From IMG/VR virus record IMGVR_UViG_3300045988_162015: a stretch of DNA of 64,000 bases; one strand, given 5' to 3'. Shown here in pieces: positions 16,935-17,978 of this stretch. The position numbers were made by a program, and so were the translations under genes. This DNA comes from a virus. Below the pieces are notes generated by a model. It worked only from the letters and a program-made list of their open reading frames with translations, was not told where the DNA came from and did not search any database. Position 1 is the stretch's first letter. Every line of letters starts with the position of its first letter.

Positions 16935-17490
16935 CCGGGTGTAGCGAAGTTTGGTATCGCGCTTGATTTGGGAAAAGAGATTTTTGTCTAAAAAATATGT
17001 TAGATATTACTCAACAGAAAGGAACTGTAACAGAGTTAAGATGTATTCTTGATTTAACTAATCTTGGATATAGATGTTTAAAATCTGTTGATGAAAGTTC
17101 TAAATATGATGTAGTAGCTGATATGGGGATGGGTAAATTTATCCGTATCCAATGTAAAACATCTTCTTGGGTTACTGATACAAAAGAACCTAATGTAGCT
17201 TTTGCAATTGCTACAAGTTGTATTACCACTAATACAAAATCTACTACTCGTCATAAGTATTCAAAAGATGATATTGATTATTTTTATACTTGGTTTGAAG
17301 GCCAAGGATATTTAGTTTCCATTGAAGAAGCTACTGGTGCAACTTTTAGATGGCGGTATGAATATCCTTCATCTGGTCAAAAACAGGGTATTCATATCGC
17401 TAATGATTACAAAATTGAGGAGGTCTTAAAGACAATCTAAGATTTTCCTGGATCAAGAGGCCGCTGGTTCAAATCCAGTCACTCGGACCA
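16935..17490 (+). tRNA. tRNA-Pro (UGG) interrupted by a 479-nt insertion between anticodon-loop position 38 and the 3' stem
   Basis: 5' part 16935-16973: acceptor CCGGGTG, D-arm GCGA-AGTTTGGTA-TCGC, CTTGA + loop TTTGGGA. 3' part 17453-17490: TCAAG, AGGCC, GCTGG-TTCAAAT-CCAGT, CACTCGG-A-CCA. The two halves pair perfectly. 'GGA' is duplicated at both junctions. Confidence 0.5.
16997..17440 (+). CDS. PD-(D/E)xK-like putative (homing) endonuclease inside the split tRNA-Pro
   Basis: Track ORF, TAG-free. 'YDVVADMGMGKFIRIQCK' resembles a D..(E/Q)xK nuclease core. Fills almost the entire insertion. Confidence 0.35.
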   Translation: MLDITQQKGTVTELRCILDLTNLGYRCLKSVDESSKYDVVADMGMGKFIRIQCKTSSWVTDTKEPNVAFAIATSCITTNTKSTTRHKYSKDDIDYFYTWFEGQGYLVSIEEATGATFRWRYEYPSSGQKQGIHIANDYKIEEVLKTI

Positions 17491-17662
17491 TCAGGGTTCT
17501 GTTAAAGATACATAATTGAAAAGGATTGATCCCCTGAGTAGATTTGTATTGGAATGAAAAAATGAGGTCTAGATGACACAGATAACCTCCCCTGAACCAT
17601 CCCTTTTGTTAGTAGGTTGTCGGGGTTAAATAACTAACATTAAAGACACACGCAGCAAATAT

Positions 17663-17706
17663 TAGATAAAATCTATGTGTTATTGGTTCAAGTCCAATAT
17701 TATCTC
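17663..17706 (+). ncRNA. tRNA-like minihelix (acceptor + T-arm only)
   Basis: 'AGATAAA' ... 'TATTGG-TTCAAGT-CCAATA-TTATCTC'. No D-arm or anticodon arm fits between them. Confidence 0.3.
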
Positions 17707-17774
17707 TGTTTAAGATAATTCGTCCAAATGGTAGGGCAATAGCTAATTTATAGCGTGTCTTGTAAATTTGAAAA

Positions 17775-17808
17775 TTTAAAAAAAATATTATATAATATAT
17801 AAGTAATC
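17775..17808 (+). promoter_or_regulatory. phage promoter motif
   Basis: 'tttgaaaatttaaaaaaaatattatataatatataag'. Confidence 0.45.
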
Positions 17809-17837
17809 AATAAGAAATTATTAATTACTTATAAGAT

Positions 17838-17978
17838 ACTGGTGTCGCCAAGCGGTAAGGCACAGGACTTTCGTAGATTAGTATAATGAATTACATCCAA
17901 AAGGAAGATAATAGTTCAAATCTATTATTTACGACCAGACTCCTGTATTCGTTGGTTCAAATCCAGCCACCAGTGCCA
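17838..17978 (+). tRNA. tRNA-Glu(UUC)-like gene with a 66-nt insertion in/after the anticodon loop
   Basis: 5' part ACTGGTG-TC-GCC-AAGCGGTAA-GGC-A-CAGGA-CTTTCGT (17838-17874). 3' part TCCTG-TATTC-GTTGG-TTCAAAT-CCAGC-CACCAGT-G-CCA (17941-17978). The insert itself contains a T-arm-like hairpin 'AATAG-TTCAAAT-CTATT' and 'ACGACCA'. Confidence 0.45.

Follow-up and report, generated by a model that had tools for sequence, protein, structure and literature searches.

Mobile inserts, one of them tRNA-shaped, in two tRNA genes of a recoded gut phage

Two tRNA genes in the viral record IMGVR_UViG_3300045988_162015 (IMG/VR) are each interrupted in the anticodon loop by an insert that is not a group I intron. 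The DNA analysed is 64,000 nucleotides (nt) long and is called the window here. It belongs to a large stop-codon-recoded gut phage with a genome of roughly 190 kb. One of the genes, tRNA-Pro(UGG), carries a 479-nt insert that is almost filled by the gene of a homing endonuclease. The other, tRNA-Gln(UUG), carries a 66-nt insert that is itself shaped like a tRNA. Comparison with related phages indicates that both inserts are mobile.

To our knowledge, the tRNA introns of bacteria and phages are thought to be of group I only, and protein-dependent tRNA splicing is considered archaeal and eukaryal. We also know of no splicing endonuclease in phages of bacteria. The account favoured here is that both inserts are mobile tRNA introns which are removed by protein or ribonucleoprotein enzymes, after which an RNA ligase rejoins the exons. 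It is put forward tentatively, with somewhat less than even confidence. The 66-nt insert is assigned to class 1 of these introns, and the tRNA-Pro insert to class 2.

Split genes, inserts and empty sites

An earlier note on this DNA had placed the halves of a split tRNA-Pro(UGG) around an endonuclease-like open reading frame (ORF). ARAGORN, with introns allowed, indeed calls this gene at 16935-17490 with a 479-nt insert. Exon 1 (16935-16970, plus strand) holds the 5' strand of the acceptor, the D arm, the 5' strand of the anticodon stem and the loop bases UUUG. The insert follows at 16971-17449. Exon 2 (17450-17490, plus strand) supplies the loop bases GGA, the 3' strand of the anticodon stem, the variable loop, the T arm, the 3' strand of the acceptor and ACCA.

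The GGA that was noted at both junctions is there, at 16971-16973 and 17450-17452, but it reflects an ambiguous junction and not a target duplication. Because GGA stands at both ends, the junction can be placed only to within 3 nt, and exon 1 possibly runs to 16973. In the intron-less alleles L132/L133 (tRNA-Pro at 6397-6473 of L133), 16973 and 17450 meet and overlap by 3 nt, and the variants L004 and L007 speak for a junction behind G35 or G36. The intron-less alleles also exclude the alternative that the two halves belong to different, complete tRNAs.

The ORF (16997-17440, plus strand, 147 amino acids) leaves only about 35 nt of the insert non-coding. It contains no TAG, and the earlier assignment to the PD-(D/E)xK nucleases holds. 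The protein matches Pfam PDDEXK_5 (PF11645) with 69.5 bits against a cut-off of 26.1 (E 3.7e-19, 135 of 138 profile positions), and also PDB 2OST, which is I-Ssp6803I (E 4e-4), and phrog_5018. It is thus a homing endonuclease of the I-Ssp6803I family. Its catalytic residues D38, Q52 and K54 align with the D...QVK of 2OST, and are invariant in nine diverged homologues, down to 21% identity.

The second split gene lies on the plus strand at 17838-17978, where the Rfam tRNA model scores 48.8 bits across a 69-nt gap. It had been described as Glu-like, which is wrong. There are 121 intact phage tRNA-Gln genes with the same 5' half, and in 117 of these that half is directly followed by GACTCCTG, giving the loop CUUUGAC. 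This makes the split gene a tRNA-Gln(UUG) and sets the limits of the insert at exactly 17872 and 17937. Exon 1 (17838-17871) ends at U35 and exon 2 (17938-17978) runs from G36 to CCA. Without the insert, the sequence is identical to that of L133/L134 and has G73; the loop CUUUGAC is also found in five near-identical relatives. The earlier length of 66 nt was right, but the insert does not follow the anticodon loop. It sits inside the anticodon, between positions 35 and 36.

By itself, the 66-nt insert (plus strand, no ORF) scores 41.3 bits with the Rfam tRNA model (gathering score 29), over model positions 1-71. ARAGORN also calls it at a low threshold. The T-arm and acceptor seen earlier exist, but they are part of a whole tRNA-like unit rather than a mere minihelix. 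The 5' acceptor strand CGTAGAT (17872-17878) is followed by a D-like arm, a stub hairpin at 17896-17905 with a 3-bp stem and a 4-nt loop (UCC AAAA GGA), a T-arm (17910-17926), the 3' acceptor strand ATTTACG (17927-17933), A73 (17934) and CCA (17935-17937). The insert is tRNA-like and not a decoding tRNA, because its anticodon arm is truncated and lacks the 5-bp stem and 7-nt loop.

An exact 26-mer of this insert has no match in IMG/VR, and a degenerate pattern of its 3' end matched only L005/L007 and one ordinary tRNA. The region 17868-17953 weakly resembles Rfam SpF41 (22.7 bits, E 0.1), a small RNA of Streptococcus. The consensus of SpF41 is likewise tRNA-like, its anticodon arm being shortened, and the two elements may be related. 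Another phage contig (L138, 6109-6194) has a free-standing type II tRNA with the insert's exact acceptor stem, discriminator and CCA (CGTAGAT...ATTTACG A CCA), which may represent the source lineage of the insert.

Relatives that are 94-98% identical in the flanks show precise empty sites for both inserts. The tRNA-Pro insert is absent from L132, L133 and L064, and present in L134/L001, L002-L009, L158 and L159; it is kept at 12 loci. Together with its tRNA it is the only segment that the window has in common with eight otherwise unrelated phage contigs and two contigs of metagenome-assembled genomes. The 66-nt insert is precisely absent from five close relatives (L064/L133, L131, L132, L134), and four metagenomic contigs that come from other samples (L160-L163) have it in the identical position. 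Given these empty-site alleles and the covariation counts below, the inserts are not chance features.

Between intron-plus and intron-minus alleles, 13 of the 77 exon positions of tRNA-Pro differ, versus 3-6% in the flanks. All 13 are compensatory variants in the D and T stems, and the 27 nt around the site are identical. This pattern looks like a co-conversion tract from homing. The signs of homing by the tRNA-Pro endonuclease are indirect: empty and filled alleles both exist, and the exon divergence is confined to the tRNA. The class 2 insert would spread in this way, driven by its endonuclease.

A third site is empty in the window itself. The tRNA-Tyr gene at 17983-18069 is uninterrupted at 18018|18019, where a relative that is 96-98% identical to the window (L134/L001, IMGVR_UViG_3300045988_152007) carries a 441-nt tRNA-shaped endonuclease intron, at L001 3959-4399. 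The ORF of that intron contains four in-frame TAGs, and ends at a UAA formed by exon 2.

Structure of the inserts and their removal from RNA

The earlier note held that the tRNA-Pro segment has too little non-coding sequence for a group I core, and proposed tRNA and intron covariance models as a check. The tRNA models match the tRNA-Gln gene and the 66-nt insert. The Intron_gpI model has no match in 16925-17500, searched alone at E<=10, and none in the 66-nt insert. Under the same conditions it does detect the intron of the nearby tRNA-Leu(UAA) gene, with 38.4 bits (E 1.8e-8) at 19844-20091. This positive control is a true group I intron: the classical site U34|A35 of the gene (19803-20164) holds a 275-nt intron (19838-20112) that ends in G. 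An Rfam search has to be confined to this region to detect it, and the score of 38.4 bits is below the gathering score of 50. It is absent from L132, and other relatives carry a 736-nt version, presumably with an ORF.

The junctions do not follow the group I rule either, under which exon 1 ends in U and the intron in G. The Gln exon ends in U but its insert ends in A (of CCA), and every allowed junction in tRNA-Pro leaves exon 1 ending in G or A. A group I intron needs about 150-200 nt of structured non-coding RNA, and here there are 66 nt in total in one case and about 35 nt outside the ORF in the other. The 66 nt are too small for any known self-splicing core. For the tRNA-Pro insert, a group I intron is ruled out by the missing covariance-model match despite the positive control. 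A ribozyme hidden under its ORF is ruled out too, by synonymous changes that are spread along the entire reading frame.

Other known processing signals fare no better. The bulge-helix-bulge of two 3-nt bulges and a 4-bp helix does not apply, since the tRNA-Pro junctions lie in a continuous helix and tRNA-Gln has a single CCA bulge. An internal bulge-4bp-bulge in the window's tRNA-Pro intron is not conserved in L002 or L008. RNase III was rejected for tRNA-Pro: the 7-nt loop UUUGGGA can be restored from the sequence only with an offset of 1, 3, 5 or 7 nt, and RNase III leaves a 3' stagger of 2 nt.

What is conserved in the tRNA-Pro insert is limited to its two ends, of about 20 nt each. The 5' strand of this intron base (16967-16989, plus strand) consists of an extension of the anticodon stem (UUUGGGAAAA), the loop strand GAGAUUU and one strand of a distal helix. 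The 3' strand (17427-17452, plus strand) has the other half of the distal helix, over the last codons of the ORF, then the loop strand UCUAAGA and UUUUCCUGGA. UUUGGGAAAA and UUUUCCUGGA pair and prolong the anticodon stem to 15 bp. Above this helix is a conserved 7x7 internal loop, GAGAUUU/UCUAAGA, which contains the UAA stop codon of the ORF.

This fold is identical in all of the eight intron-bearing alleles that were scored for pairing in the cloverleaf and the intron base, whose endonucleases differ by up to 25%. Pairing is found in 98.8% of cells. Both sides have changed in 16 of the 30 pairs, including all five anticodon-stem pairs that form across the insert. None of 500 shuffles reaches this level, and slid controls pair at 37-50%. 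The distal helix of 5-6 bp covaries (TTGTCT/AGACAA, CCTCTT/AAGAGG, GTGCTT/AAGCAC, CTACTT/AAGTAG), and the GGAAAA/UUUUCC helix has one compensatory change from G-C to A-U. A K-turn was considered for the 7x7 loop, with G.A/A.G pairs beside a UAA bulge. Six alleles agree with it, but the key pair is occupied by C and A in L008 and L009, and the K-turn is retained as a lead only.

The earlier note had left several explanations for the tRNA-Pro gene, and an unusual intron now fits better than a dead gene, because the halves covary as one cloverleaf in these diverged alleles. On this comparative evidence, the split tRNA-Pro stays under selection and looks functional.

Homologous endonucleases are found in inserts of about 440-490 nt in the tRNA-Pro, tRNA-Lys/'Phe', tRNA-Ser, tRNA-Asp, tRNA-Ala and tRNA-Tyr genes of other phages. 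A single profile of all of these endonucleases proved too diverse for a genome scan. The only cultured phage found with such an endonuclease inside a tRNA is Enterococcus phage EFP01 (KY549443). Its tRNA-Asn, at 105.2-105.8 kb and unannotated in the record, is interrupted by 463 nt between U36 and A37. This site is empty in 29 sister phages, iF6 among them.

The same family also occurs free-standing. In Escherichia phage SelmaRatti (L168, 1170-1575), a free-standing homologue ends 2 nt short of an intact tRNA-Ser, and a second copy of the first 15 nt of that tRNA (GGAAGAATACGTTAA) lies immediately upstream of the homologue. This arrangement could be a transitional form between endonuclease genes that stand free and those framed by a tRNA.

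The introns of tRNA-Tyr genes have the frame of the 66-nt insert, with an I-Ssp6803I-like endonuclease gene where the D and anticodon arms would be. A helix forms between the first 7 nt of the intron and the 7 nt directly behind a T-arm (for example TCGAG TTCAATT CTCGA), and the intron ends in N73 or N73-CCA, directly before exon 2. The reading frame runs through the minihelix and stops at a UAA that exon 2 supplies. Across class 1, the introns of L143, L145, L147 and L150 have the 3' boundary N73|, and those of the window, L005, L140, L141, L149 and L152 have N73CCA|.

Ten class 1 introns were aligned: eight from tRNA-Tyr, the window's 66-nt insert, and an 81-nt nested insert in the tRNA-Gln of L005. 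The terminal helix, anchored at the junctions, and the T-arm pair in 90.8% of cells. Compensatory changes occur at 11 of the 12 pairs. Here too none of 500 shuffles reaches the observed level, and slid controls pair at 30-51%. The earlier note knew no precedent for nested tRNA-like units. They are real and recur in other phages, and literature searches found no precedent for them.

Two further cases were looked at. A 65-nt tRNA-like insert without CCA in a tRNA-Asn(GUU) (L093, 4059-4197, reverse strand) is either a decayed member or a counter-example. A '52-nt intron' in the tRNA-Pro of L161 is an ARAGORN artefact, in which the tRNA is fused with the T-arm of a Y RNA.

Class 1 introns have the form of a substrate for RNase P and RNase Z, that is a 7-bp acceptor helix on a T-arm with a 3' end at N73 or N73-CCA, so that cleavage is predicted at their ends. 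The cleavage site of RNase P is 5' of +1. RNase Z-type enzymes cleave precursors without CCA behind N73, and those with CCA, in the case of E. coli RNase BN and Thermotoga RNase Z, behind the CCA. Minihelices of acceptor and T-arm are sufficient substrates for both RNase P and RNase Z. RNase P would thus cut at the start of the insert and free exon 1 with a 3'-OH, and RNase Z would cut after N73 or CCA and free exon 2 with a 5'-phosphate. The coincidence of the intron ends with these cut sites would account for the two kinds of 3' boundary. The tRNA body would keep the nicked exons together, and an ATP-dependent RNA ligase of the T4 Rnl1 kind would seal the anticodon loop. A nick with 3'-OH and 5'-phosphate that is held by a tRNA body is a substrate of such ligases. 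Cutting and rejoining is also in keeping with the RtcB gene of EFP01 and with the kinase and two phosphoesterases of the window, both described below.

Several things weigh against removal by enzymes and ligation. No RNA ligase is found in the 64 kb by motif and Pfam search; the only ligase is an ORF at 51509-52717, of the DNA-ligase type. In Bacillus-type RNase Z, CCA inhibits cleavage. RtcB joins 2',3'-cyclic phosphate and 5'-OH ends, which RNase P and RNase Z do not leave. The segments of the class 1 alignment were cut by hand, though at positions fixed by the junctions, and the L093 insert gives no 7-nt loop under the RNase P/RNase Z rule. Class 2 has no T-arm, and its cut-site offset is uneven: 1 nt in tRNA-Ser, 1 or 3 nt in tRNA-Pro, and 3 nt in tRNA-Lys and the tRNA-Asn of EFP01. 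Intact-looking exons could also come in part from repeated recent homing and not from function. We infer splicing, its enzymes and ligation from comparative data.

Class 2 lacks a T-arm, its offsets vary and RNase III is excluded for tRNA-Pro; the conserved helix-loop-helix is its likely recognition module. A single 'discriminator' rule for all of class 2 was tried and fails, with offsets of 1 nt in Ser versus 3 nt in Lys and in EFP01 Asn.

The strongest of the alternatives is that these are selfish insertions which inactivate the tRNA genes. The inserts would be endonuclease cassettes and their ORF-less relics, never spliced, and host tRNAs would serve the phage. Their place in anticodon loops would follow from the DNA specificity of the endonuclease. 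There is no ribozyme, and no RNA ligase in the window, and only a minority of relatives have the 66-nt insert. The same endonuclease family also stands free between tRNA genes in cultured T5-like, Bacillus and Vibrio phages, and the island around the two genes is full of other endonuclease insertions. Dead DNA would not be expected to keep conserved, structured intron ends anchored exactly at the junctions, and the exons keep a perfect cloverleaf, with their 16 compensatory pairs, even as the endonucleases diverge. There is no intact second copy of tRNA-Pro or tRNA-Gln in the window. Inactivation is accordingly rated as rather unlikely, if worth taking seriously.

It is unlikely, but at least conceivable, that a dedicated endoribonuclease does the cutting and produces ends with 2',3'-cyclic phosphate and 5'-OH, which RtcB, or kinase/phosphatase healing plus a ligase, would then join. 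Such a route would parallel tRNA splicing in archaea and eukaryotes, but would work without a bulge-helix-bulge. The nuclease could be an anticodon-nuclease-like enzyme of phage or host, or the intron protein acting on RNA. EFP01, with its class 2 intron, encodes RtcB (201.7 bits), so that a ligase of the tRNA-splicing type is available there, and the L138 locus ends in a fragment of an RtcB-like ORF. In the window, an AAA_33 kinase lies between two metallophosphoesterases, a set that resembles RNA end-healing enzymes, and the conserved 7x7 loop of class 2 looks like a protein-binding site. Such a nuclease was not identified, however. PD-(D/E)xK enzymes are metal-dependent and leave 5'-phosphates, and the ORF-less 66-nt intron would need a factor in trans. 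Phages commonly carry RtcB and healing enzymes to counter anticodon nucleases, so that finding them is not specific. The class 1 boundaries at +1 and N73/CCA would also be left unexplained.

It is quite improbable that the nested tRNA-like RNA is itself the relevant product, a decoy or cofactor freed by RNase P and RNase Z, with tRNA-Gln as a carrier that is sacrificed or down-regulated and never rejoined. The insert does have an acceptor, T-arm and CCA of its own, all complete, and is recognised by the tRNA model. It has the weak likeness to SpF41 and the free-standing counterpart in L138, and the island also encodes a YrlA-like tRNA mimic and ROOL. The tRNA-Tyr versions, however, have an ORF in place of the RNA body, the Gln exons are intact in insert-bearing genomes, with one compensatory change in the acceptor stem, and tRNA-Pro is not explained at all.

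Very improbable indeed is an unrecognised self-splicing or self-cleaving RNA, be it a degenerate group I intron that overlaps the ORF or a new small ribozyme: the endonuclease family does occur in a true group I intron of a cyanobacterial tRNA-fMet (the 2OST match), and the tRNA-Leu intron is just 2 kb away, but there is no covariance-model signal, 66 nt is far below a group I or II core, the U(-1) and terminal-G rules are broken, synonymous sites vary and nothing beyond the two ends of roughly 20 nt is conserved.

The surrounding RNA-gene island

The split genes are part of an RNA-gene island at 16.2-20.6 kb of the window. It comprises tRNA-Thr, tRNA-Pro, a Y-RNA-like RNA, tRNA-Gln, tRNA-Tyr, ROOL, tRNA(CUA), tRNA-Leu, RAGATH-33 and tRNA-Gly. 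A full-length ROOL RNA (18148-18741, Rfam 326.9 bits) and the RAGATH-33 RNA (20178-20290, 135 bits) lie between the tRNA genes. Against INPHARED, the DNA of the island has generic tRNA matches only, and no cultured phage there is alike at the DNA level.

TAG is a sense codon in this phage. The 61 plus-strand ORFs contain 137 in-frame TAGs, and not one of these ORFs uses TAG as its stop. Gln-like identity marks, namely a mismatched 1-72 pair and G73, are found in the suppressor tRNA(CUA) at 19629-19703.

The earlier note also saw a free minihelix at 17663-17706. Its T-arm and closed acceptor-like hairpin are real, but they are not a free unit. They belong to a YrlA-like Y RNA, a tRNA mimic, at 17643-17764 on the plus strand, with a terminal helix, a T-arm (17681-17697), a closed acceptor-like hairpin (17698-17718) and a D-arm with GG. 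The alignment to Rfam YrlA (RF02553) covers the whole fold, but its 23.6 bits (E 0.007 on 361 nt) fall short of the gathering score of 69. The minimum-free-energy fold of the region has the same five-helix topology as YrlA, and the RNA is conserved in L130, L131 and L160-L163. A permuted tRNA gene would fit the topology, but no anticodon loop is possible in it, and a YrlA-like RNA explains the region better.

Like YrlA and other bacterial Y RNAs, it joins a terminal helix to a tRNA-like domain of T-arm, D-arm and closed acceptor in permuted order. It differs in scoring under the family threshold, and no Ro60/Rsr orthologue was recognised (no TROVE match). A DUF2828/DUF7788 (vWA-type) protein at 28647-30185, without a PDB relative, and an MVP-like protein are encoded 11-13 kb from the YrlA-like RNA. 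They belong to a run of genes at 28647-37571: DUF2828/DUF7788, MVP-like (shoulder and repeat domains), NADAR, metallophosphoesterase, AAA_33 kinase, metallophosphoesterase and SPFH/flotillin. This run resembles an RNA-repair or vault-like neighbourhood. Its proteins could be the partner set of the YrlA-like and ROOL RNAs.

A promoter-like motif, AAAAATATTATATAATAT, lies 40 nt upstream of tRNA-Gln (17781-17798, plus strand). With up to 3 mismatches there are 37 matches in the window, versus 5.9 expected. They are mostly on the plus strand and upstream of genes or RNA genes, including tRNA-Thr, ORF121 and ROOL; examples start at 15278, 16185, 16485, 17781, 18096, 25100, 26377, 34816 and 44503.

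Close relatives have further endonuclease genes in this island. In L130 and L001, free-standing GIY-YIG and HNH genes (L001 1683-2370; L130 6580-7170, 7640-8050 and 9840-10560) adjoin tRNA-Thr, tRNA-Pro, tRNA-Gln and tRNA(CUA). Relatives with such a gene have another allele of the adjoining tRNA. The island is a hot spot for allele replacement driven by endonucleases. In two relatives, 145 extra nt (L133 9820-9964, at about 20430 of the window) are found directly upstream of tRNA-Gly.

Split tRNAs are easily overlooked. ARAGORN reports four tRNAs of the island in standard mode and seven with introns allowed, so 3 of 7 are missed, and the EFP01 tRNA-Asn went unannotated. This means that phage tRNA repertoires, and what is concluded from them about codon recoding, are incomplete.

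Comparison with known systems

Full-text literature searches found no description of phage tRNA introns that are tRNA-shaped or endonuclease-bearing and not ribozymes. The tRNA-shaped introns are rated here as a new kind of element, with their splicing inferred from comparisons among genomes. If that is right, cut-and-ligate tRNA splicing exists in the bacterial world. It could run on universal tRNA end-processing enzymes and on phage RNA ligases, whose natural roles are still debated. EFP01 and its 29 intron-less sister phages offer a cultured system in which to study the proposed splicing.

A broader proposal is possible, if on the doubtful side. Beside group I, group II and bulge-helix-bulge there would be a further kind of intron: tRNA mimics in phage tRNA genes, without a catalyst of their own, excised by the cell's RNase P and RNase Z by virtue of an acceptor/T-arm minihelix, with the anticodon loop rejoined by RNA ligase, moved as DNA by PD-(D/E)xK endonucleases and perhaps also as RNA, and decaying to relics of 66-81 nt. 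For the RNA route, the excised tRNA-like RNA with its 5'-phosphate and 3'-OH may be ligated into a nicked anticodon loop and then copied back. Such movement would explain the varied insertion points, 34/35, 35/36 and 36/37.

One of the closest known systems is the group I intron in the tRNA-fMet of Synechocystis PCC 6803, which encodes I-Ssp6803I. It shares the endonuclease family, the target in a tRNA anticodon loop and a presence/absence pattern of the homing type. That intron, however, is a self-splicing ribozyme of about 200 nt plus an ORF, and no group I core is detectable here.

The tRNA introns of archaea and eukaryotes, which are cut by EndA and joined by RtcB or Trl1, are also short inserts in the anticodon loop without a ribozyme, presumably handled by protein cutting and rejoining as proposed here. 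Some archaeal examples even carry homing endonucleases. The inserts in the window have no bulge-helix-bulge, and the sites of this family are 34/35, 35/36 and 36/37, not 37/38.

Split and permuted tRNA genes, as in Nanoarchaeum and Cyanidioschyzon, likewise keep tRNA halves apart in the DNA. Here the halves are colinear in one transcription unit, with a mobile insert between them and an empty-site allele.

In MALAT1 mascRNA, mitochondrial tRNA punctuation and tRNA-linked precursors, an embedded tRNA-shaped module also has its ends set by end-processing enzymes. The flanks are released in those systems, whereas here the module is mobile and sits within the anticodon of another tRNA, so its flanks must be re-ligated.

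That last step recalls the tRNA repair of phage T4 (PrrC anticodon nuclease, Pnkp, Rnl1), in which a phage RNA ligase seals an anticodon-loop nick in a folded tRNA. The window has a kinase/phosphoesterase set but no Rnl gene was found in it, and T4 repairs damage, while the route proposed here would remove an intervening sequence.

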